A stretch of 64,000 bases of DNA from a virus. Of this stretch, positions 3,001-55,374 are shown in pieces. Made by a program: the position numbers and the translations under genes. The notes beneath the pieces were generated by a model. The model saw nothing but the letters and a program-made list of their open reading frames with translations. It ran no database searches and had not been told where the DNA came from. The stretch is from IMG/VR virus record IMGVR_UViG_3300045988_169928, positions 32,001 through 96,000 of that record; one strand, 5' to 3'. Every line of letters starts with the position of its first letter. Positions within the stretch are counted from its first letter, which is position 1.

Positions 3001-6000
3001 CAAAAGTGGCAACAGTAGTGCCTCGCCCAGAAACAGCTAACTTAGATTGTAATAAACCAGACGTTTGAATATAAAGGTCTTGATAATTAGTTGTCGCGGC
3101 TTGAGAAACAATACTAATTTTTAGCATTCGTTCATTGTAGTAAACCCCATTCAAACTTTGTGGGTTAGTAAATTGACTATTATTACCATCTAAAGTGGAA
3201 TTTCCTTGATGGTTATTAGTACCATTAGAAATAAAATTGTGATCACTATCTGCAAACTCAACACTAGCACTAGTAGTTATTCCCGGATAAGCAGGATAAT
3301 CGTAGTGAGTTAGGAATACCCGTTGGCCCTCACTAATTGGATACCAAGGTGTATAGTATTTATTTTGTAACCAACTAGCATAGATACTGTCAGAAGGGTT
3401 AGGCGACCAAGGGTGGGCAACGGTACCTTCCTCGACCATTGGTAATCGTACATAAGCATCACAACTTTCACTCTTAGCATGGTAGATGATATGTGCTTTG
3501 TTTGCACTATTAACAGTTCCGCTGACAGCATATCTTGTCCAGTTGCTAGTTAAGGTGACTACTTTTGTAAAATCACCTTCACGACCAATCATAAATGTGC
3601 CAGACCCTTTCATTTCGACTGAGAACGTTTCTGAATCACCAATCGCAAATGGTTCTGTACTATTAGCATAGATAGCATTCCATCTACCATAGAATCCACC
3701 ACTGCTTGTGGTGCTTGTGATATGTGCTGTTGCTATGCCATCACTACCGGTATTCCAATCAACGGTTGGATTGTTTATATCTGTATTTGCAAAAGATTTT
3801 GAATTAAGCCATAGGTTTAGTCCGCCTCTATTGACAGAACTACCTTTTTGCAAAGTAGTTAAGTCCCAATAGTTACTACCCTGTGCTACCGTAATACTAT
3901 CGTCCCTAGTGTAATCTTTAATTGCATTCCCAGCAACTAACTTTACACTCCTAAAGGAAACGGTACCCTTAGTTTCACTATTGTAAACTTGACCCAATAA
4001 AGCAGTTAAAACAGACCCTTTATCCCACGTACCAGAAACAGTACACGTATAAGTTACCCAATCAGTAGTTAGTAATAACTTAGTCTCACTATCTGTACTG
4101 GTAAAGGTGCTAGTTTGGTTTGGAACACTAGGTGAAGTGGTAACTGATACTTGGGTGGTTTTATTCTGTAATTGTGAATATGCGTTCCCCCAAGCAGGGT
4201 ACATATGAACATAATCGCCGCTAACGGTACTTTTAGCTTGAACTTGGAATGTATAAGTAGTATCAGTTGAAGTATAGTCAAAAGGATAATCCCCATTGTA
4301 AGTGCTAGTCGAATCTAGAACAGGATTTGAGTAGTAAGTAACATCATCAACCATTAACAGGTTTTTATCACCATTGATATTGGCCTGTAAATTACTATCT
4401 AATGACTGAATAGTCAATTGTTGTAGTGTCCAATCGCTTTGAGTGAATGCACCGCTTGGTCTAGCAGTTGTACAGAAATAAGTTGACCCAGATGTTGTCC
4501 AAATATCCCCTAAATCATAGGGAGTAGTTGGGGTAGAGGTAAAGTTACGTTTCTTAGATGAATCAAACATCTTTACCCATGTGTACTTGGTAGGGTCATC
4601 TGAACTGGTTAGATTGTAATCAGTATAAGTACCAAAATAATTATAAGAATTATTACCAGGTGTATCTGTAAATCCTACACTACCATCTGCTGAATTAGCA
4701 TAAGCAATATGGAAATAAGTAGTTTGACCATCTGCACCTGGCTTACCTGGAACCCCATCGGCACCCTTAATTAAACTCCATGTATAATCAGTAGCTGTAC
4801 TTGACTCATTGCTACTTTCCTTGTTGTAAGCTATCCCGATATAGCTCATTCCCGTTGGTGAGTCGCTCATGCTACTCCCGCTACTATCAGTGGCATACTT
4901 AATCCACGTATAGTAAGTTTTGCCATCTACACCCTTAGCTCCTGGAATACCTTGGTCACCCTGATCACCTTTGGGACCTTGTACTAATTGCCAAGAGTAA
5001 AGTGCTGGATTAGTGCTATCAGTTTGTATGAAGTCCGTATAACTACCAATGTATTTTCTAGAACCAGGAGTATCAAGAGAAAAGTTTGTTTTACCATCAC
5101 TGCTATCAGCATAGGCAATATGGAGGTATGGTGTCTTACCATCAGCACCTGGCTTACCCGGTACCCCATCTTTACCATCTGCACCATCTGCACCCTTGAT
5201 TAATGACCAAGCGTATTTAGTAGGATCAGTGCTATCTTCAGATGTAAAGTCAACATACATACCAATATAAGTTCGATTGCTATCTGATACTGTAAAGTCA
5301 GTTTTACCGTCTAAAGAGTTAGCATAAGCAATATGAGTGTAACTTGACTTACCATCTGCACCAGCAGGTCCTTGAATACCTTGTTCACCTTTTGGGCCTT
5401 GAAGACCTTGTAAACCCTGTTCACCAGGGTCACCCTTTAGTCTAGACCATGTGTACTTAGTATGATCAGAGGAATCTTCTTCAGTAAAGTCAGTATAAGT
5501 ACCAACATATAAAGCATTAGCAAAGTAAGTTAAGTTAAAGCCATTAGTACCATCACTACTATTAGCATAGGCAAAGTGTACATAACTTGTTTTACCATCA
5601 GCACCTGGTTTACCCGGCACCCCATCTTTACCATCTGTACCATCAGTACCTTTCATTAATGACCACGTGTACTTAGTAGGGTCAGTGCTATCTTCAGATG
5701 TAAAGTCAACTAGCAAACCAATATAAGAAGCACCACTAAAGCTATCTACACTAAAATTACTCTTACCATCAGCACTAGTTGCATAAGCAATGTGGGTATA
5801 ACTAGTTTTACCGTCTGTACCAGGAATACCTTGTGGACCCTGGGTAGGAACAACTACCCATGTACCATTTTGATACTGTTTTAGTGTACCATCTGTATCT
5901 GTCCAAAAGTCACCATCATTAGGGTCAGCTGGGGCAGAACTAGCAACATAATTATTGTTAACATTATTATCAATAAACTGTACCCAATTCTTGCTAGAAA

Positions 6001-45179: not shown

Positions 45180-45252
45180 GCTAATTTAGCTCAATTGGCA
45201 GAGCGCCTGCCTTGTAAGCAGGAGGCTACAAGTTCGATTCTTGTAATTAGCA
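45180..45252 (+). tRNA. tRNA-Thr (anticodon TGT).
   Basis: I folded the cloverleaf by hand. The acceptor is GCTAATT/AATTAGC with discriminator A. The D arm is GCTC-AATTGGCA-GAGC. The anticodon arm is CCTGC-CTTGTAA-GCAGG. The T arm is ACAAG-TTCGATT-CTTGT. Confidence 0.85.
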
Positions 45253-45316: not shown

Positions 45317-45405
45317 GGAGAATTACCCAAGTTGGTTGAAGGGGCACCCCTGCTAAGGGTGTAGGCCGGGAAACTGGTGCGAGAGTTCGAATCTCTCATT
45401 CTCCG
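45317..45405 (+). tRNA. tRNA-Ser (anticodon GCT), a class II tRNA with a long variable arm.
   Basis: The acceptor is GGAGAAT/ATTCTCC with discriminator G. The anticodon arm is CACCC-CTGCTAA-GGGTG. The variable arm is TAGGCCGGGAAACTGGTGC. The T arm is GAGAG-TTCGAAT-CTCTC. Confidence 0.85.
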
Positions 45406-45763: not shown

Positions 45764-48739
45764 ATGAAGATCAAGATTATTATTGATTCATATCAGGAAG
45801 ATATGTTCAAAGTGGTAAATAATCAAGTTACCCAACAGGTTGCTAGTTCTAAGCTAGGTCGTATCTTGATGAACGAAGTGATTAATCACCCCCAAAAGGG
45901 GTTAGATACGAAAGATCATGATTTAAGCGTTGGCTTCTTTATTCAGGAAGTTCCTCGCATGATTAACGAAGATACCTATGCTAAGCCTAAAGCTGATACC
46001 ATTAACAAGTATTTAACTAAACTTATCTTTAACATCAAACAGGATAAGCCCGATATTGTAGTTGTGTTTGGGTCTTGGTGTGCTAACGCTTTATGTAAGC
46101 GTACAGAAGTGAAGAAGAAACTATATGAGCTGACTAAGATTGACTTAGATGGGTTCACCACTTACTTTGCCTTTAGCCCTTCTCTCCGGCGGTTAAACCA
46201 ATTGTCACCAATGGAGCATGACCAATACCTAATTCAGAATCGGACTATTAATCGTTTCTTAAAGGGTGGGTTTGTCAACACCCTCCCCCAGTTTGGTAAG
46301 TATGAATTACTAGATGATTTTGATAAGGTAAAACAAACTTTCGATTATGTTTCATCGTTACCAGATAAGCACGTTATTGCGATGGACTTTGAAACTAATA
46401 CCCTAGAAACCTATCGTTCAGGGGCCAAGGCAATCATGCTAAGTATGTCGTGGGAAGAACACCAAGGGGTTTCAATCCCCCTCGAACACAAGTTGTATTC
46501 TAACCTTTGGACAAAAGAACAGTTCGACTATATCATTAATTGGATTTTATCCTTCTTTGATTCCCCACATTGGAAAGTCATGCACAACGCTAACTATGAC
46601 CTTCAAATGTTAATGGATATTTATGGACTAAAACACGCCCAAAGAGTTTTAGATACCATGCTAATGTATTATGAAATGTACACCGAAGAAAAGGGTGCGC
46701 AACGTGGTCTAAAGCACCTTGCCTATCTTTTTACGGACATGGGAGGCTATGAAGATGAACGTGATCTGGCTATGGAAGATTACCTACAAAAGCACCATGA
46801 TCGTTGGGAAAAGGAACAAAAAGAAAAGTTAGCTCGGGGTGAGATTAAACGGATTGTTAAATCACAGTATGAACCCCCTAAAAATGAAGTTGACGGCGGT
46901 AAATTTAACTTTGAATGGTTACCTTTAGATTTACTATATAAGTATGCTAGTGCTGATACAGACGTTACCTTACAGCTGTATCACAAGTTCTTGCCAAAGA
47001 TTAGAGAACACCAAAAATGGTTTGATATGGTCTTTAACTACTACCCTAAGTTAGTAGAAACTCTATCCTTTATGCAAAGCACTGGGTTCAAGGTTGATCG
47101 GGATAAGTTAAATAATTATCACGACCACTTCCTAAAAGAACAAGAAGATATTACTAAGAAGATTTATGATACAGTCCCCGAAGTCAAGGAACTAGAACAT
47201 ATACGTCAGGGTTATGTTCAGGAGAGGGAAAAGATTAAGCAGATTAAGCCTGCTGATCGAACCCCAGAACAGAAACAGAAATTTAAGGACTACTTCAAAT
47301 ACTCTAAAAAAACTAATGGCCTATATGGTTATCAATTTAACCCGGGTAGTCGTGATGATGTAAATTATGTATTATATAAGATGATGGGGTATGAACTACC
47401 ACCAGAAAAAGAATATCTGTCGGACAAGTATTCCCGATATGCTGGGAAGGAAGATCAGATTACTTGGAAGATGTATAAGTCTGATCGTAAGGTTGCTTTA
47501 CCATATATAAAGAATAAGTATCATGAACCATTGGCTGACTTATTACTTACTTACTCTAAGGATAAGAAGATGGTGAGTGGGGTTACTGATTCTTATGGTA
47601 GTTTGTTAGATGACAATAGTATTATCCACACTAAATTCCAGATTACAGGAACCTCGACTGGCCGTCTTGCTAGTCAAAACCCGAACATTCAGAATATCCT
47701 CAAGCCAACTTCTAACGTTTATGACCCTAATTATAATTATCCCGTTAAAGCATTATTCGTGTCTAGGTTTGATAATGGATATATTTTCAACATTGACTAC
47801 AAGTCCCTAGAATACTTTGTGGCTGGATTGATTACCAAGGATTTAGGGCTTATGCAGACGTTAATGGACGGAGCCGATATTCATAAGTCTAATGCTAGTA
47901 AGGCGTTCCATGTTCCTTTTGATGAGGTTACTGCTGACCAACGTTTTAAGGCTAAATCAGTAGGTTTCGGGCTTATGTATGGCGAGACAGAGCAAGGGTT
48001 AGCTGAAACATTGCATTCCAGCCTAGAAGAAGCTAAGGACACAATGCAAAAGGTGTTAGGGGCCATGCCGACCCTATCTAAGGTCATTGACGCCGTACAC
48101 AATTTTGTTGAACAACGCGGATATGTTGAAACTATTCGGGGGCACGTTCGCCGTCTCCCTGACGCAAAGTATGGTAGCTATGGTAGTAAGGCAAGGGCGC
48201 TTCGACAGTCCTTCAATGCGCTTGTCCAAGGTAGTGGGGCTAACGTTACTAACACAGCCTTGATTAAGGTTAGAGAAGTGCTACGGGGCTATAAGTCAGA
48301 ACTGGTTGCAACGGTTCACGATAGTATTGTGCTAGATGTCCACCCTGACGAAGTAATGATAGTTCCTAGATTAGTTAAGGAAATCATGGAACAGGTAGAA
48401 ATTCCTGCCTTCATTCTTAACATTGCTGATTTTCCTGATTTACGAATTGATGATAAGTACAAGATCAATGATAAACAGTTCCGTTTCCCACTCTTTGCGG
48501 AAATTGAATTTGGCCACGTATATGGAGAAGAACTCGACTATGATGTTGATCTAATAGGCCAAGTTGGTATGGACAGGTATTATGATTATGCGAAGAAGGT
48601 TAAGTATTCTAAGGATAAACTTAATACTGACTTAGGCAAAGAAGATGATGAAGATAAGAAGGAACAATTAGTTAAGGAACATGATGAATATCTTAACCAA
48701 CTAAAAACTGGTTTGGTAGGTGATAATAATGACTGTTAA
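45764..48739 (+). CDS. DNA polymerase I-type (family A) with a 3'-5' exonuclease domain.
   Basis: ORF of 991 aa. Exo I is VIAMDFETNTLE. Motif A is DYKSLEYFVAG. Motif B is RFKAKSVGFGLMYGE. Motif C is VHDSIVLDV. There is an N-terminal extension of about 190 aa. Confidence 0.9.
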   Translation: MKIKIIIDSYQEDMFKVVNNQVTQQVASSKLGRILMNEVINHPQKGLDTKDHDLSVGFFIQEVPRMINEDTYAKPKADTINKYLTKLIFNIKQDKPDIVVVFGSWCANALCKRTEVKKKLYELTKIDLDGFTTYFAFSPSLRRLNQLSPMEHDQYLIQNRTINRFLKGGFVNTLPQFGKYELLDDFDKVKQTFDYVSSLPDKHVIAMDFETNTLETYRSGAKAIMLSMSWEEHQGVSIPLEHKLYSNLWTKEQFDYIINWILSFFDSPHWKVMHNANYDLQMLMDIYGLKHAQRVLDTMLMYYEMYTEEKGAQRGLKHLAYLFTDMGGYEDERDLAMEDYLQKHHDRWEKEQKEKLARGEIKRIVKSQYEPPKNEVDGGKFNFEWLPLDLLYKYASADTDVTLQLYHKFLPKIREHQKWFDMVFNYYPKLVETLSFMQSTGFKVDRDKLNNYHDHFLKEQEDITKKIYDTVPEVKELEHIRQGYVQEREKIKQIKPADRTPEQKQKFKDYFKYSKKTNGLYGYQFNPGSRDDVNYVLYKMMGYELPPEKEYLSDKYSRYAGKEDQITWKMYKSDRKVALPYIKNKYHEPLADLLLTYSKDKKMVSGVTDSYGSLLDDNSIIHTKFQITGTSTGRLASQNPNIQNILKPTSNVYDPNYNYPVKALFVSRFDNGYIFNIDYKSLEYFVAGLITKDLGLMQTLMDGADIHKSNASKAFHVPFDEVTADQRFKAKSVGFGLMYGETEQGLAETLHSSLEEAKDTMQKVLGAMPTLSKVIDAVHNFVEQRGYVETIRGHVRRLPDAKYGSYGSKARALRQSFNALVQGSGANVTNTALIKVREVLRGYKSELVATVHDSIVLDVHPDEVMIVPRLVKEIMEQVEIPAFILNIADFPDLRIDDKYKINDKQFRFPLFAEIEFGHVYGEELDYDVDLIGQVGMDRYYDYAKKVKYSKDKLNTDLGKEDDEDKKEQLVKEHDEYLNQLKTGLVGDNNDC

Positions 48740-49305: not shown

Positions 49306-50118
49306 ATGGAAAACAAATTACAACTATTTGATTTCAAAGGGCAACAAGTCCGCACAGTGATCATTGACAATGAGCCTTACTTCGTTGGTAAGGACGTTGC
49401 AATGATTCTTGGATATAAAGATTTAAGCCGTGCTCTTAATCAGCACGTAGAAAAAGAAAGCCGCAAGTCCTTGTCCCTCAAGGCTTCGGGCGATTCGTAC
49501 CCTAGCCTATGGGAAGGCAAAAACGATTTTTCAAATAAGATAGTAATTAATGAGTCGGGAGTTTATGATTTGATTTTTAATTCCCAATTACCGAAAGCTC
49601 ATGAGTTCAAACACTGGGTCACTAGCGAAGTCCTCCCATCAATTCGCAAGCACGGTGCCTATTTAACGCCAGACAAGATTGAGGAAGTCTTGTTGAACCC
49701 AGATACTTTGATTAAACTTGCAACAGAACTCAAGAAAGAACGTGAAGGGCGTGTGTTGGCTGAACAAAAAATCCAACAGGATCGTCCAAAAGTCTTATTC
49801 GCTGACGCAGTATCAGCAAGTGACACGCCTATTCTAATTGGTGAGTTAACAAAGATCTTAAAGCAAAATGGGATTGAGATTGGACAGAACCGATTGTTTG
49901 TTTGGTTAAGGAGTAAAGGCTACCTAATCTCACGGAATGGTACAGACTACAATACACCAACACAGAAAAGCATGGAATTAGGTCTATTTAAGATTAAAGA
50001 ACGCACCCGTGTTTCTAGTGACGGTAGTGTTAAGATCACTAAGACGTCAATGGTAACGGGTAAAGGTCAGCAATACTTTGTTAATAAGTTTTTAGGCGAG
50101 AAATATAGTATCAAGTAA
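49306..50118 (+). CDS. Antirepressor (Ant) with Bro-N and KilA-C domains.
   Basis: ORF of 270 aa. The N-terminus FDFKGQQVRTVIIDNEPYFVGKDVAMILGY is a Bro-N motif. The C-terminus resembles KilA-C (ILIGELTKIL...FVWLRSKGYLI). Confidence 0.7.
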   Translation: MENKLQLFDFKGQQVRTVIIDNEPYFVGKDVAMILGYKDLSRALNQHVEKESRKSLSLKASGDSYPSLWEGKNDFSNKIVINESGVYDLIFNSQLPKAHEFKHWVTSEVLPSIRKHGAYLTPDKIEEVLLNPDTLIKLATELKKEREGRVLAEQKIQQDRPKVLFADAVSASDTPILIGELTKILKQNGIEIGQNRLFVWLRSKGYLISRNGTDYNTPTQKSMELGLFKIKERTRVSSDGSVKITKTSMVTGKGQQYFVNKFLGEKYSIK

Positions 50119-50899: not shown

Positions 50900-51480
50900 A
50901 TAAATGTAAACTTGAAGTGGGTGAATAAGGGTCTTGCAAACCCGCCCCTCATGATTACCTGTAAAGCACCTAAGACGTGGTTAAATGGTAGCTTAACTAT
51001 TTCAATTGGTAACAGGTAATAGTGTTACCAACTAGAGAAAAAAATCTAGGGTGGTGGTAATCATGGAAATTAGCTTGAGGATTTAGGGTAGCCACGGACT
51101 GGCTAACCACAATACTATACCCGTAGTTAAATCGCCTTGAACAAGCGAATGACCCAAAGCGGGAGGTCTCATTAAGGTAGTTACCGATGAAGCGTGGTAA
51201 CACGTGTATAACAGTCCAGTGGTGTATGAGTAGCTAACGGTACATAAACAGCAAATTTATGTATATTACAATCTATGCTTACGCTTAGTGAAAGTTGGTG
51301 GGTACCGATCCCAGCCCAGCCTTGGCCATTTGCTATCAGAGCTGTTTGTTGACGAATAAATAGTAAGCCTGATAGGTGCTGTCACCTAATAAAGTCTGTT
51401 TGCTGATATTCCACGTAAACCAATACGCAAGTTTATAAAAGAAGCTCACTACCCAATATGGGTGGTGGGCTTTTATTGTA
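50900..51480. ncRNA. Second candidate structured non-coding RNA of about 0.6 kb, possibly ROOL/GOLLD-class.
   Basis: A 615-nt gap (50881..51495) in an otherwise tightly packed plus-strand operon. It is GC-richer than its flanks and has multiple stems, for example TTGGTAACA-ggtaatag-TGTTACCAA at about 51004-51029 and GTTACC-gatgaagcgt-GGTAAC at about 51180-51202. Confidence 0.35.
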
Positions 51481-51495
51481 TATTACAATTGATAG

Positions 51496-52428
51496 GTGGT
51501 GAAAAGAATGTCTTTAAAAGATATACAAGATTATTTTACAATTGTAGATGACGCAGGTAGCTTACAGAATTATACAGGCAACCCAGATTATGCGTTAGAT
51601 GATAAATGGAAGAATATCAGCCTAGATGATTTAGGGTTAAATAAAGATATTATTCAACAGGAATTACTTGGTTTAGGGAGGGATTTAGTAGACCCAGTAA
51701 CTGGTGAATCCTATTCAGATGAGTTCTATCAGAATATGTTAATTCGGGCAGTCTCACAAACAGAGAAGAAGTTTGACTTGGCAATTCTTCCTCGGTTACA
51801 AGTTGATCGGCTAGACTATCACCGGAATGATTTTAATGCGTTTGCTTATATGAATACAACTTTACGGCCAATTTTGACGGTAAAAGATTTAACATTGTAC
51901 TATAACAATCAAACGATTATGCGAGTTCCTATGGAATGGGTCAAGGTTAATAATCGTTCGGGTCAGATTCAGGTTTCTCCTAGTATCTTAATGCAAGGGT
52001 TAAATACAACCATTAACCCGACTATCTACCCAATCCTTTCTAACCCGTATGGTATGGCTCCAACACCATTCCAACAGATTGAAGTAAGTCCTCAAATGCT
52101 AGGGGTAACATCTGTTGTGGGTATGATGCCGGCTAGTGATCGAATTGGTGAGTTCCATGACTATCAGATTCAGCCAGACGTCCAATCCTATGTGGCTAAA
52201 CTAGCCGCAATTGAAATTCTAGAAAAGTGGGGTCGTAACATTATCGGGGCTGGGATTGCTTCCTATAATGTTTCGATGGACGGAATTTCAACGGGAATGA
52301 ACACCACAGCAAGTGCCGAAAATACGGCTACCACGGCTGATATTAAGTTACTACAATCAGATATGAAATCTTTAGCAGACGGTATCAAAGCATACTATGG
52401 TAACCCAGAAATTGGTTTTTACAATTAA
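51496..52428 (+). CDS. Hypothetical, probably structural, protein. Its last 18-22 codons are duplicated, with synonymous recoding, at the end of the next ORF.
   Basis: ORF of 310 aa (the probable start is the ATG at 51508, with the RBS AGGTGGTGAAAAG). The C-terminus is ..DMKSLADGIKAYYGNPEIGFYN. Confidence 0.55.
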   Translation: MVKRMSLKDIQDYFTIVDDAGSLQNYTGNPDYALDDKWKNISLDDLGLNKDIIQQELLGLGRDLVDPVTGESYSDEFYQNMLIRAVSQTEKKFDLAILPRLQVDRLDYHRNDFNAFAYMNTTLRPILTVKDLTLYYNNQTIMRVPMEWVKVNNRSGQIQVSPSILMQGLNTTINPTIYPILSNPYGMAPTPFQQIEVSPQMLGVTSVVGMMPASDRIGEFHDYQIQPDVQSYVAKLAAIEILEKWGRNIIGAGIASYNVSMDGISTGMNTTASAENTATTADIKLLQSDMKSLADGIKAYYGNPEIGFYN

Positions 52429-52489
52429 AGCTATTGATAAATAAAACAAACTTCTGTATTATTGATGATGTAGATACGGGGGGTTTATT

Positions 52490-53428
52490 ATGGTAAAACG
52501 TAAAACAGATAAACAATTTAAACAAGAGGTCTTTGACCTAGTAGGTAATGAATATACATTCTTAGATACTTATGTTAATACTATGACTAAGATAAGAGTT
52601 AAACATAATAAATGTGGGAATACCTACGAGGTAACACCTGATAATTTTCTACATGGCAATCGTTGTTCATATTGTGCAGGTAATGCTAGGAAAACAGATA
52701 AACAATTTAAACAAGAAGTATTTGACCTAGTAGGTAGTGAATACACATTTTTAGATAAATATGTTAATAGTCAAACCAAGTTAAGGGTTAAGCATAATAA
52801 TTGTGGAAATGTTTACAGGGTTATCCCCAATAATTTTCTTAGGGGTAAGCGTTGTTCATATTGTTATGGTAATACTAAGAAAACAGATAAACAATTTAAA
52901 CAAGAAGTCTTTGACCTAGTAGGTAATGAGTATACATTCTTAGATCCTTATGTTAGTAACGAGACTAAGATAAGAGTTAAACATAATAAATGTGGAAATG
53001 TATATAAGGTAATACCCACTAATTTTCTTAGGGGTAAGCGTTGTCCTTTTTGCACCGACACCCCTAAAGGTGAACTTATTATCATTAAAATTTTAGATAA
53101 GCTAGGTATTAATTATGATTACCAGAAAACGTTTGATGATCTGAAAGATGATAGGCTTTTATCCTATGATTTCTATCTTCCAGATCAGAATATCCTAATT
53201 GAGTACCAAGGACTACAACATTACCAACCAATTGATTACTTTGGTGGAGAAACTAAGTTTAAAATCCAACAGAAACATGACCAGATGAAGTTGAATTATG
53301 CTAAAAAACATGGATACAATTTAATCTTAGTTCCATACACAGTAGATACTTTACCTAAGATTATGAAGGATCTGGCCAATGGTATTAAGGCTTACTATGG
53401 AAATCCAGAGGTTGGTTTCTACAACTAA
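52490..53428 (+). CDS. Putative homing endonuclease: three tandem zinc-ribbon repeats, a PD-(D/E)XK domain (DUF559/Vsr-like), and a C-terminal 22 aa that copies the upstream gene's C-terminus.
   Basis: ORF of 312 aa with three ~62-aa repeats (KTDKQFKQEVFDLVG.EYTFLD.YV...TK.RVKHN.CGN.Y.V.P.NFL.G.RC.YC). YDFYLPDQNILIEYQGLQHY matches the DUF559 motif. The C-terminus IMKDLANGIKAYYGNPEVGFYN is a protein-level duplicate of the upstream gene's end but with divergent codons. Confidence 0.55.
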   Translation: MVKRKTDKQFKQEVFDLVGNEYTFLDTYVNTMTKIRVKHNKCGNTYEVTPDNFLHGNRCSYCAGNARKTDKQFKQEVFDLVGSEYTFLDKYVNSQTKLRVKHNNCGNVYRVIPNNFLRGKRCSYCYGNTKKTDKQFKQEVFDLVGNEYTFLDPYVSNETKIRVKHNKCGNVYKVIPTNFLRGKRCPFCTDTPKGELIIIKILDKLGINYDYQKTFDDLKDDRLLSYDFYLPDQNILIEYQGLQHYQPIDYFGGETKFKIQQKHDQMKLNYAKKHGYNLILVPYTVDTLPKIMKDLANGIKAYYGNPEVGFYN

Positions 53429-53508
53429 ACGTCTATTTAAGATAAAGTTTGCTAATATAGCTATATTGAAAGTAGTAAATTAAATCACTTAACAGAAAAG
53501 GGGATTAT

Positions 53509-55374
53509 ATGGCAACACTAACTAAATCATCTGAAACGATGAAGTTAATTTATCCTAAGGAAACTAATACACGTCCACACGTTGCAACACAATACAATGA
53601 TAACGCATTAAATAATGTTGCAGGTTCTTCGTCCAAGAATATCTTCCTATTAGGATCAGCAACAGAAGGCAACCCAGATAATATCTATGAAGTTAAATCA
53701 TCTTCCCAAGCTCGGGCCATTTTTGGGTCTGGTGATCTGGTTGAAGCAATGGAATTAATCTGGAACCCAACAGGTAGCTACTACCAAAATGGTGGGACAA
53801 TCTATGCACAACGGGTTGAAAATGCAACCCAAGCTCAATTGGTCAAGGGGCCTTTAACTTTTACTTCTACTGTTTATGGGGCAAGTGCTAATAAGGTATC
53901 TGTTTCATTTAACAAGAACCCTGTATCTGGGGCTTATGATTTCCATGTTGATTATGAACCCAAGATGTATTCCCAAACGTACATGAGTATTGGTAATCTC
54001 TTTACGATTGGTTATGACCCGACTTCTTCCAATGTAACGGGGGCTGGGTATAAGATTACAGGTGATCTTTCTGGTGCCCAAACCTTTGAGATTGTACTGA
54101 ATACGTCTGGTGCGTCACAACCAGTCCTAACGATGGATTTAACCAGTACCGCTTACAATAACATTGGTAAGGTTATTACAGCAATTAGTGCATTACCTGG
54201 TTTTACCGTTACCACATTAAAGAGCTGTGCTAACATTGATTCAACCACTTTGGACTTGACCAGTGGTAGTGGTTATCTTACTTTGGGGACTGGTTCCGCA
54301 CCAACCACGATTACCGACTTCTATGGTGACTTACTTTACACCACTCGCTATGATGATTATGTAGGTATTAGTGTTAATCGTTTAGGGGCACCAACAGGTG
54401 TAAGTGCCGAGGCTAGTGGTAGTGACACGGTAGTTACTGCTAATGCACAAGAGATCACTTTTGTACCATTTGACGCTACTAATCTTTCTGGCGGTAGCGA
54501 TGGTAATGTACCAGTTTCATGGGCTGATAAGTTCCAGAACGTTCATGAGGTCAATGCTTACTACATTGTTCCATTGACGAGTGAAGAAAACATTCACGCC
54601 GAACTGAAAGAGTTCTTAAATGAAGAAGAAATTCTTGGCTACAACTACTTTGGTTGGGTTGGTGGTGGATTTAATGAAAGTATGAGCGCCGCCATCAACC
54701 GGCAAACGGCTTTAAAGTCTGATCGTATTGCCTTAGTAGCTAACTCTGGGTATTACAATAGTCTCAGTGGGAAAGTCGTTCACGCACCTGCTTATCTAAT
54801 GGCCGCCTATGTAGCGGGGGTTGCTAGTTCCTTGGGTGTTGGCGATTCTGTTACCCACAAATATCTGGAATTAACTAGTCTTGACCAAAATTTCAATGGT
54901 GATGAATTGAACGCCCTTGATGATAATGGGGTTATCGCAATTGAGAAGGTAGTTAACCGCAACCAATCTGGTGGCTACCGGATTGTCGAAGATGTTACTA
55001 CTTACAACTCCACGAATGAACCAGTTAAGAACCTAGTTTCACTTCGGGAAATCACCGACTACTTATTTGATGATCTTCGTATCTATCTTGAAGATACCTT
55101 TATCGGTTCCAGCGTAGTAAATACGACAGGGAGTTTAATCGCTAGTTTTATTGAAGCATTCTTGAAGCAAAAGGTTAGTGAAGGTCTGTTAGCAAGTTAT
55201 GATCAGCAAAGCATTACTTGTACCATTGATGGTAATAGCGCCTACGTTGCCTTTAGTGCCGCACCTGCACGTGAAGTACGGACAATTCTCGTAAGTGGTA
55301 CTTACACTAACTTCACTAGCACAACTTCTCAAGACAATTCTAATTATACTACCAATAATGGTGTAACTGGTTAA
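53509..55374 (+). CDS. Tail sheath protein.
   Basis: ORF of 621 aa. The N-terminal block NIFLLGSATEGNPDNIYEVKSSSQARAIFGSG...GGTIYAQRV and the C-terminal block VHAPAYLMAAYVAGVASSLGVGDSVTHKYL resemble conserved contractile-sheath motifs. The call is from memory of the family, not from an alignment. Confidence 0.6.
   Translation: MATLTKSSETMKLIYPKETNTRPHVATQYNDNALNNVAGSSSKNIFLLGSATEGNPDNIYEVKSSSQARAIFGSGDLVEAMELIWNPTGSYYQNGGTIYAQRVENATQAQLVKGPLTFTSTVYGASANKVSVSFNKNPVSGAYDFHVDYEPKMYSQTYMSIGNLFTIGYDPTSSNVTGAGYKITGDLSGAQTFEIVLNTSGASQPVLTMDLTSTAYNNIGKVITAISALPGFTVTTLKSCANIDSTTLDLTSGSGYLTLGTGSAPTTITDFYGDLLYTTRYDDYVGISVNRLGAPTGVSAEASGSDTVVTANAQEITFVPFDATNLSGGSDGNVPVSWADKFQNVHEVNAYYIVPLTSEENIHAELKEFLNEEEILGYNYFGWVGGGFNESMSAAINRQTALKSDRIALVANSGYYNSLSGKVVHAPAYLMAAYVAGVASSLGVGDSVTHKYLELTSLDQNFNGDELNALDDNGVIAIEKVVNRNQSGGYRIVEDVTTYNSTNEPVKNLVSLREITDYLFDDLRIYLEDTFIGSSVVNTTGSLIASFIEAFLKQKVSEGLLASYDQQSITCTIDGNSAYVAFSAAPAREVRTILVSGTYTNFTSTTSQDNSNYTTNNGVTG

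Follow-up and report, generated by a model that had tools for sequence, protein, structure and literature searches.

Phage genomes are shaped by homing endonucleases, yet one can rarely observe, step by step, how a free-standing homing endonuclease gene (HEG) comes to settle in an essential gene without destroying it. Within the window, i.e. the entire 64-kb stretch of DNA analysed here, one locus raises the question of how a nuclease gene has come to lie between two copies of the end of another gene. The upstream ORF (51496..52428, on the plus strand as are all features described below) ends with DMKSLADGIKAYYGNPEIGFYN and more likely starts at the ATG at position 51508, which leads to a protein of 306 amino acids. 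A stop codon (52426-52428), a spacer of 61 nt (52429..52489) and a change of frame separate it from a second ORF (52490..53428) which encodes a nuclease of 312 amino acids ending with IMKDLANGIKAYYGNPEVGFYN. The last 21 codons plus stop of the upstream gene (copy A, 52363..52428) recur as the last 21 codons plus stop of the nuclease ORF (copy B, 53363..53428) at an offset of exactly 1000 nt. Because 1000 = 1 mod 3, the nuclease ORF lies in another absolute frame than the upstream gene, and its frame matches that of copy B. The ORFs, the tails, the spacer and the DNA strings quoted by the first-pass annotation of this locus all proved correct on re-reading. With a probability of roughly 0.8, we interpret the arrangement as a free-standing, intron-less HEG residing in the 3' end of the upstream gene. 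The absence of an intron, likewise claimed before, is in agreement with Rfam, which returned no intron match in 52200-53600; as a chance MS2 hairpin was the only hit in this region at E <= 1, a group I intron was rejected.

The gene which carries the insertion is labelled as a tail fiber gene, yet it is the gene of the head-to-tail adaptor, an essential component of the virion. Its product (51508..52428), which is intact and of full length, shows a fold matching that of a solved phage neck adaptor, and its last 21 residues, present in about 100 homologues of the gene, form the end of a long C-terminal helix. While copy A is a replacement tail constituting the present adaptor terminus, copy B is the original adaptor tail which now forms, in frame, the C-terminus of the nuclease. 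Copy B is followed by the native intergenic region (53429-53508), representing the right flank of the insertion, and by the tail sheath gene (53509-55374; PHROG 279 tail sheath, E 3.9e-105). The cassette spacer probably provides the nuclease ORF with expression signals of its own, namely a promoter-like site (TTGATA at 52434-52439 and TATTAT at 52457-52462, 17 nt apart; 10/12 in a promoter scan) and a run of GGGGGG (52478-52483) as putative ribosome-binding site.

The two tails agree in 18 of 21 residues, while 17 of their 63 coding bases differ, changing 11 codons synonymously and three non-synonymously. The duplicated and recoded adaptor end put forward by the first-pass annotation is thus borne out. 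When the 312-aa protein was compared with the window by tblastn, its tail matched at copies A and B alone; since the second of these matches has an E value of 9e-8, the duplication is not due to chance. By the same method, no further copy of the nuclease family or of the tail was found in the 64 kb.

An empty-site allele (L001) is found in Lactobacillus phage LfeInf, compared to which the window contains exactly 1000 extra bases between the adaptor and the tail sheath genes. Window positions 51300-52429 and 53362-53700 align to contiguous LfeInf DNA at 97% identity, the latter segment to L001 4064-4402 at 96.8%, and the hexamer TATGAA is common to both edges of the insert, which consists of the copy A tail, the 61-nt spacer and a nuclease body of 291 codons. 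This presence or absence of 1000 bp between nearly identical flanks supports the earlier view of a mobile cassette at the 3' end of a gene. The uninterrupted allele predicted to exist in related phages is present in LfeInf and in nine further nuclease-less loci, where the adaptor gene is directly followed by the sheath gene. That such alleles end in codons of the copy B type holds for the close ones: LfeInf shares 61 of 68 bases with copy B (about 10% different, all seven coding differences being synonymous) compared to 52 of 68 with copy A. Copy A deviates from LfeInf at 16 of 66 nt (24%), whereas the preceding 855 nt contain 9 mismatches (1.05% over the adaptor body; Fisher p 1e-13). Because copy B is close to the empty-site alleles and the differences of copy A are mainly synonymous, both copies must have evolved as functional ends of a gene prior to their joining. 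One might also envisage that the gene end was duplicated locally in tandem, with one copy diverging in place and the nuclease landing between both later, and the two direct repeats flanking the nuclease gene would suit such an origin. The remainder of the gene is, however, 99% identical to LfeInf, leaving no time for an in-place divergence of 24%; moreover, the almost complete identity of copy B with empty-site alleles, the predominance of synonymous changes in copy A and the existence of a locus which has the diverged copy A and the nuclease but no second copy (L004) speak against it. We deem this origin extremely improbable.

In related phages and metagenome contigs the locus is encountered in several states. 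The site is empty in L001, L007, L009, L010 and L016-L020. In L004 the same nuclease stands free between the adaptor and the sheath genes, lacks copy B and, comprising 302 residues, keeps its native C-terminus SKIKKYLTRHGLNL. The cassette can thus exist without the C-terminal duplication. The fused form is present in the window (together with L005 and L006) as well as in L003 and L012, two diverged fused versions from other samples. Among distinct loci, four bear the nuclease (window type, L003, L004 and L012) and ten do not; as the loci are related by descent, the four nuclease-bearing ones all being metagenomic contigs, these counts are not independent. A search of IMG/VR for further relatives yielded LfeInf itself only, a 21-mer of the spacer had no match in the IMG/VR scan, and a scan of JGI metagenomes added two short loci, which are nuclease-less or partial. 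The spacer is more than 93% conserved in the four nuclease-bearing loci and absent from the empty-site alleles examined. Preceded by the nuclease-linked terminal haplotype of the adaptor gene, it occurs in all four of them, and this haplotype is found in its whole length of 15 codons next to the nuclease only. A strict linkage between haplotype and nuclease is weakened by the nuclease-less loci L021 and L022, whose mixed tails start with the first few codons, making up the first half of the nuclease-linked segment, and continue with a native second half. L013 and L014, nuclease-less as well, combine a KSLAD patch with the native end. Judged by their sequences, these chimeric tails look like scars of nuclease loss or co-conversion. 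No donor of copy A was found; in other Herelleviridae, at the best tblastn places in Semele, 3-521 and Enterococcus phages, nuclease and adaptor lie kilobases apart.

Two trivial explanations of the fused ORF, a chimera produced by metagenome assembly and a 21-residue tail native to the nuclease family, can be regarded as refuted. The identical 312-aa protein is encoded on 11 contigs, the two loci that were read (L005 and L006, from different gut-metagenome samples) show the same arrangement as the window, and two diverged versions exist, which argues against an assembly artefact. All nuclease homologues examined end, as does the consensus of a 65-sequence alignment, in KIKKYLxxHGL(NL). The PHROG profile covers residues 1-290 of the nuclease, profile coverage stopping at residue 290-300, and the window protein leaves the family match after TLPKI, the native last 11 residues of the family being gone. 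The 21-residue tail is therefore native to the adaptor family and not to the nuclease family. This is also in line with the claim that the original 3' end of the gene became fused to the nuclease, copy B being native-type and in frame, with the nuclease family's own end missing.

On the nuclease ORF, Pfam matches are to CapR (PF21817), DUF4379 and YqhI; at E <= 0.1, hmmscan of the 312-aa protein reports these and ChxR_N only. Its DNA-binding part (52490..53056) consists of three tandem zinc-ribbon repeats of the CapR type (52490-52687, 52688-52876 and 52877-53056), which are 77-78% identical to one another. In the structure model a unit of one helix, three strands and a short helix occurs three times over, and the Cys and His residues of the ribbons are invariant, so the three repeats recognised in the first-pass annotation are confirmed by profile and model alike. 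PMC10448857 describes CapR repeats as modules through which phage homing endonucleases bind DNA. The catalytic domain (53057..53362, about residues 190-291) had been assigned as a DUF559/Vsr-like nuclease, of which the Vsr-like part stands, by fold comparison, while no DUF559 or Vsr match is present in Pfam (hmmscan E <= 0.1). Residues 190-291 match nothing in Pfam, NCBIfam or the PDB, whether searched as single sequence or as 65-sequence profile, and with both kinds of query against the PDB there is no sequence-level match to I-Bth0305I or Vsr. The predicted fold nonetheless resembles that of Vsr and I-Bth0305I (EDxHD-like), the likeness existing at the fold level only. Among the members of the Vsr-like EDxHD family are the Hef endonucleases of phages (PMC3239194). 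Glu195, Asp227, Glu238, His244, His263 and Asp264 are invariant in 65 homologues. RefSeq and PHROG 559 label the protein as an HNH endonuclease; as there is no HNH match in Pfam and the model shows an alpha/beta Vsr-like fold instead, we rejected this assignment, and the label seems to have been given generically.

Devoid of the 11 conserved C-terminal residues, the window nuclease could be inactive. The insert might accordingly represent the relic of an HEG or a domesticated derivative which no longer homes, its protein regulating via DNA binding, as HEG-derived CapR does, or being idle, and the distribution of the cassette might result from ordinary recombination between co-infecting phages. 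Besides the lost residues, one could invoke the retention of three CapR repeats, a module known from both HEGs and HEG-related proteins (PMC10448857), as well as the nuclease alleles being clearly mosaic, which points to frequent plain recombination. Yet the ORF is intact and, with a dN/dS of 0.23-0.34 among four alleles (dS up to 0.40), under constraint over its whole length, nuclease domain included. Furthermore, the acidic and histidine residues invariant in the family are kept, and the fused form persists in lineages which are about 13% diverged in DNA. Since five of the ten residues following the junction (Lys290, Ile291, Lys293, Leu295 and Gly298) equal the family consensus, the last helix may be preserved as well. 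A relic or domesticated insert thus seems unlikely to us. In LfeInf, a 390-aa paralogue of the nuclease (gp005) has a C-terminus without similarity to its upstream neighbour PnuC, i.e. fusion to a target tail does not recur there.

If the insert is a free-standing HEG, its history can be pictured as follows. For free-standing endonucleases, intron-less homing is the described mode of movement (PMC2988022). The mobile unit would comprise the last ~15-20 codons plus stop of a diverged adaptor gene, the 61-nt spacer and the nuclease ORF. The nuclease would cut nuclease-less adaptor alleles within or beside the hypervariable five codons after Met286, whereupon the cassette would be copied by repair from a co-infecting nuclease-bearing genome. 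To yield the fused form, the left side would have been repaired by homology, while the right broken end would have been joined to the 3' end of the nuclease via short homology. At the resulting junction, between CCT AAG ATT and ATG, codon 291 of the nuclease is joined to codon 286 of the native adaptor gene, and this is why the native 21-codon tail persists as C-terminus of the nuclease; the imported copy A tail completes the adaptor gene. The junction is identical in the window and in two diverged relatives, and 9 of the 12 bases behind it are equal between the native nuclease 3' end and copy B. Copy A would escape cutting through its re-coded bases and copy B through the loss of the sequence left of the junction. 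The 66-nt direct repeats would permit a later loss of the nuclease leaving chimeric tails behind. The order in which the free-standing form came first and the fused form later is a parsimony argument, and recombination with paralogues could reverse it.

Sequence diversity along the adaptor gene bears on the site of cutting. Calculated for 51-nt segments, it amounts to 0-0.08 in the gene body, compared to 0.35 in the five-codon patch which forms the first part of copy A (52366-52380); this patch is clearly the most diverse region at the DNA level only, being tied with one other region at the protein level. For the second part, the nuclease-linked terminal segment (52381-52428), diversity among nuclease-less alleles is 0.026, while nuclease-bearing and nuclease-less alleles diverge by 0.186. 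The flanking DNA of the occupied allele thus differs from that of the empty allele in the way demanded of a co-conversion or immunity tract. The naive patch AAA GAC TTA GCT AAY is present in six of the eight close nuclease-less loci and in none of the seven tail copies from nuclease-bearing genomes (Fisher p 0.007), a count which predates L021 and L022, both of which also lack it. The five codons by the junction have been shuffled between nuclease-bearing and nuclease-less alleles; since the patch types KSLAD and VELAN occur in either, the patch alone cannot explain immunity. The fusion may, alternatively, have arisen by illegitimate recombination without any cutting by the nuclease, e.g. by replication slippage or template switching between a genome with a free-standing HEG and one with an empty site, which would render the junction uninformative on the cleavage site. 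The homology at the junction (TATGAA and the subsequent 9 of 12 bases) equally suits template switching, and free-standing enzymes cut away from their own insertion site, whereas the cut of intron-encoded ones lies less than 25 bp away from theirs (PMC2988022). The junction, however, directly adjoins the 15 nt in which the gene varies most (0.35 versus 0.08 or less), and the imported haplotype has its left boundary at this same place, which is what one would predict if it is here that breaks occur and repair tracts begin. We consider fusion without cutting possible but rather unlikely. Only tentatively do we propose, as an extension of the homing model, that the population displays the full life cycle of an HEG (naive, free-standing, fused and excised) and that junction and hypervariable patch pinpoint the cut site. 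In a highly improbable variant, the fusion would be more than a scar: with its adaptor tail the nuclease might have gained the assembly contact of the adaptor, might thereby enter the neck or the virion and, delivered together with the DNA, might attack the genome of a resident or co-infecting rival at an early stage of infection.

Empty site, simple insertion, duplicated fused form and probable loss scars thus coexist in near-identical phages of Limosilactobacillus fermentum. As one of them, LfeInf, is in culture, insertion site, likely target and immunity determinants can be tested directly with a few PCR substrates. In addition, the annotation of the target gene is corrected from tail fiber to head-to-tail adaptor, and the Vsr-like fold is linked to the "HNH endonuclease" genes of Herelleviridae, a group which is very abundant but uncharacterised.

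Compared to known phage systems, the locus shares with the free-standing seg, mob and hef genes of T4-like phages the position between conserved genes or at their edge, the lack of an intron, the presence or absence among close relatives and a divergent flank consistent with co-conversion (PMC2988022 and PMC2790892). The T4 review PMC2988022 reports insertions that split genes and, judged by a term search of its text, apparently describes neither a duplicated gene end nor an ORF fusing nuclease and target. Except for Hef, the T4-like free-standing enzymes are of the GIY-YIG or HNH type, whereas the window nuclease has a Vsr-like fold. I-Bth0305I (PMC3239194; PDB 3R3P) is encoded by an intron in recA and binds DNA via NUMOD/HTH elements, in contrast to the intron-less nuclease with its three CapR zinc ribbons described here. 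The CapR homing endonucleases of ICP1 phages likewise have repeated zinc-finger modules of the CapR type with recombination between repeats, and they too lie where genetic exchange has its boundaries, beside essential genes for the virion or for replication, while their catalytic domain is T5orf172 (GIY-YIG-related) instead of Vsr-like; a term search of PMC10448857 found no passage on a duplicated target-gene end. In the phage literature searched, we found no description of a layout with duplicated gene end and nuclease fusion.

The closest likeness is offered by the mobile-ORF gene hybrids of fungal mitochondria (atp6 of Allomyces macrogynus; atp6, atp9, cox2 and nad3 of Glomus; PMC3630166), with which the window has the order of gene core, foreign C-terminus, endonuclease ORF and native C-terminus in common. 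In both systems, the foreign end has departed from the sister genome much further than the native remnant has, yet the encoded protein sequence is retained; DNA identities for foreign and native end are 76% and 90% in the window as against 64-81% and 91-98% in Glomus. The window differs in belonging to a bacteriophage and in encoding a nuclease with Vsr-like fold and zinc ribbons. Its adaptor gene has a stop codon of its own, its nuclease ORF a promoter-like site and a ribosome-binding site of its own, and the native remnant is fused to the nuclease rather than to the host gene. Whereas in some mitochondrial hybrids the endonuclease ORF continues the reading frame of the upstream host gene, here it shares its frame with the downstream remnant, and a free-standing form without duplication coexists in the phage population. 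The window locus is thus the phage counterpart of the mitochondrial mobile-ORF gene hybrids, and the strategy of fungal mitochondria to "bring your own gene end" operates in phages, too.

Re-reading of the window bore out the arrangement described in the first-pass annotation. The ORF of the head-to-tail adaptor (51496/51508..52428), whose C-terminal end is DMKSLADGIKAYYGNPEIGFYN, is followed, after a 61-nt spacer, by the ORF of a 312-aa nuclease (52490..53428) with the C-terminal end IMKDLANGIKAYYGNPEVGFYN, and the two 21-codon tails (copy A, 52363-52428; copy B, 53363-53428) are separated by exactly 1000 nt. Of their 63 coding bases, 17 differ, which changes 11 codons synonymously and three non-synonymously, and there is no third copy elsewhere in the window. 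An assembly artefact is ruled out since the identical 312-aa protein is present on 11 contigs and the arrangement recurs in two loci read (L005 and L006), which stem from different gut-metagenome samples.

The adaptor end is polymorphic for an insertion. Megablast matched the locus to Lactobacillus phage LfeInf (Hopescreekvirus, Herelleviridae; host L. fermentum), in which window positions 51300-52429 and 53362-53700 correspond, each at about 97% identity, to positions 3001-4131 and 4064-4402 of the LfeInf locus L001 with nothing between the two segments. Because both flanks are contiguous in LfeInf, the insert comprises 1000 bp; TATGAA is common to its two edges (52362-52367 and 53362-53367). 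With the LfeInf tail, copy B shares 61 of 68 bases and the whole encoded peptide, copy A only 52 of 68 bases. Mismatches to LfeInf number nine over the 855 nt of the adaptor gene ahead of the tail but 16 over the 66 nt that make up copy A (Fisher p 1e-13). Hence, copy B is the original, native end while copy A was imported from a more distant relative, which is the orientation initially proposed, and LfeInf provides the uninterrupted adaptor gene with a copy-B-type end that was to be sought among related phages.

The adaptor protein matches PHROG 772 end to end, its gene being labelled 'tail fiber protein' in RefSeq. The duplicated tail comprises the end of the long C-terminal helix (residues 276-297) and the last nine residues, and since about 100 adaptor homologues carry the motif DMK..L..(F/Y)YG.PE(V/I)G.., it is native to this family of genes. 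A full-length ROOL RNA (Rfam RF03087; 50893-51438, plus strand; model positions 1-574 of 574; 124.6 bits at a gathering score of 99.1) immediately precedes the adaptor gene and is itself followed by a terminator-like hairpin (51440-51474). Two tRNA genes (45180-45252 and 45317-45405, plus strand) closely precede the DNA polymerase gene (45764-48739). Between the latter and a 249-aa gene, a variable slot (49306-50118, plus strand; L001 1116-1658) harbours a Bro-N/ANT antirepressor-like gene in the window, L005, L013, L014 and L021, AntA/ANT in L012, a small HTH gene in L017, L019 and L020, and a 180-aa 'DNA helicase' in LfeInf.

With regard to the 312-aa protein, the zinc ribbons noted in the first-pass annotation proved to be three tandem CapR-type repeats (Pfam PF21817 and DUF4379; 77-78% identical to each other), while the C-terminal alpha/beta domain, there taken as DUF559/Vsr-like, is matched by no sequence model. 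The ORF is intact and constrained and its product has a nuclease-like fold; E195, D227, E238, H244, H263 and D264 are invariant among 65 homologues, and 538 phage records, for the most part Herelleviridae of Staphylococcus, Enterococcus, Bacillus and Lactobacillus, contain relatives. Among the best matches listed, alignments end at query residues 291-306, and coverage by the PHROG 559 profile is confined to residues 1-290. As the native family end, PYT.DTL.KIKKYL..HGL(NL) followed by the stop codon, differs from that of the window protein, in the latter 21 residues from the adaptor have taken the place of the 11 native ones that would follow TLPKI. That the tail might instead belong to the nuclease, with no allele of the adaptor gene free of a homing endonuclease gene, is contradicted by LfeInf, by the adaptor homologues and by these native nuclease ends.

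Further alleles were retrieved from metagenomes via protein searches and contig look-ups; relatives other than LfeInf are all metagenomic contigs, and distinct occupied loci number only four. Among these relatives, no donor of copy A was found. Empty sites are present in close (L016-L020) and more distant loci (L007, L009 and L010). Free-standing and fused forms of the nuclease coexist. In L004, a copy-A-type adaptor tail and the same spacer precede a 302-aa nuclease, 89% identical to that of the window, whose C-terminus is the native one, SKIKKYLTRHGLNL; the 3' untranslated sequence behind it is of a different kind and passes into the native intergenic region some 58 nt ahead of the ATG of the tail sheath gene, and copy B is absent from this locus. 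L003 and L012 show the fused arrangement with an identical junction (CCT AAG ATT joined to ATG); at the DNA level, their nuclease bodies share only about 87% identity with that of the window. Of the ten residues that directly follow the junction, five match family positions that hardly vary (K290, I291, K293, L295 and G298). The 12 bases behind ATT read AAG AAG TAT CTA at the native 3' end in L004 and ATG AAG GAT CTG in copy B of the window, with agreement at nine of them. Short homology of this kind could have steered the joining of the two ends and at the same time kept the last helix intact.

The dN/dS ratios of 0.23-0.34 for every pair of four nuclease alleles (first 291 codons; dS up to 0.40) indicate past purifying selection. 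A mosaic structure is evident among the alleles: in repeat 2 (52688-52876) the window is close to L004 (93-100% per 60 nt) and matches L003/L012 at only 70-80%, but further downstream it is L003/L012 that it resembles, in agreement with the shuffling of repeats reported for homing endonucleases that carry CapR (PMC10448857). A 390-aa paralogue of the nuclease with four repeats, LfeInf gp005 (L015 2780-3952; 69% identity), adjoins a PnuC-like gene; its approximately 30 additional C-terminal residues do not stem from the PnuC tail.

Two parts can be told apart in the adaptor tail, a patch of five codons behind Met286 and a terminal segment of 15 codons. Nucleotide diversity in the patch amounts to 0.35 versus 0-0.08 per 51-nt stretch of the gene body, and its six haplotypes in the alleles read are shuffled between nuclease-less alleles and the two tail copies: the copy B patch of L012 is that of copy A in the window and L004, and the copy B patch of L003 is that of copy A in L012. 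In the four loci the type of repeat 2 tracks that of the copy A patch (peptide KSLAD against VELAN/VEISN), which could reflect mere linkage or specificity. The patch AAA GAC TTA GCT AAY (L001 4068-4081 in LfeInf; also L016-L020) occurs in six of eight close nuclease-less loci, counted before L021 and L022, both devoid of it, were added, versus none of seven tail copies of nuclease-bearing genomes (Fisher p 0.007); as the loci are related by descent, this association with nuclease absence is only suggestive. The patch includes a perfect 8-bp palindrome, TTAGCTAA, which is broken in every tail copy of nuclease-bearing genomes and may be relevant to recognition by a Vsr-like enzyme. Within the terminal segment, nuclease-less alleles differ little from one another (diversity 0.026) but more from nuclease-bearing ones (0.186), and the complete nuclease-linked terminal haplotype plus spacer is found only beside the nuclease. 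Chimeric tails do exist in nuclease-less alleles: L013 and L014 combine the KSLAD patch of copy A with the native terminal segment, while in L021 and L022 (2850-2921) the patch and the nuclease-linked first half of this segment (GGT ATT AAA GCC TAT TAT GG) precede the native second half and intergenic region. The latter tail looks like a scar, either of nuclease loss by recombination between the direct repeats copy A and copy B or of a partial co-conversion tract.

We consider it probable, at roughly four in five, that the locus carries a mobile cassette encoding a homing endonuclease, which brought in a gene end from elsewhere and left the native one as a remnant. The enzyme would cut nuclease-less adaptor alleles near codons 285-291, and recombinational repair would copy the cassette in, corresponding to intron-less homing (PMC2988022); consistent with the arrangement originally claimed, no intron was found at the locus. 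A single event between a donor with the free-standing gene and a recipient with an empty site may have given rise to the fused form; in it, homology would have guided repair on the left, and the right broken end would have been joined to the nuclease 3' end via short homology. The re-coded terminal segment would shield copy A from cutting, and copy B would be safe as the sequence left of the junction is gone. A target site spanning junction, patch and start of the terminal segment would suit a protein with three DNA-binding repeats; the footprint of I-Bth0305I covers about 60 bp (PMC3239194). This specific account of junction formation and cutting place is tentative and, in our judgement, slightly less likely than not.

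The layout is that of fungal mitochondrial mobile-ORF gene hybrids (Allomyces atp6; Glomus atp6, atp9, cox2 and nad3), in which a foreign C-terminus together with an endonuclease ORF has been inserted and the native C-terminus is left downstream (PMC3630166). A review on T4 describes insertions that split genes (PMC2988022); a term search of it for 'duplicat' gave no match, and no phage example of the layout was found in the literature searched. Among phage elements, the cassette groups with the free-standing endonucleases (seg, mob, hef).
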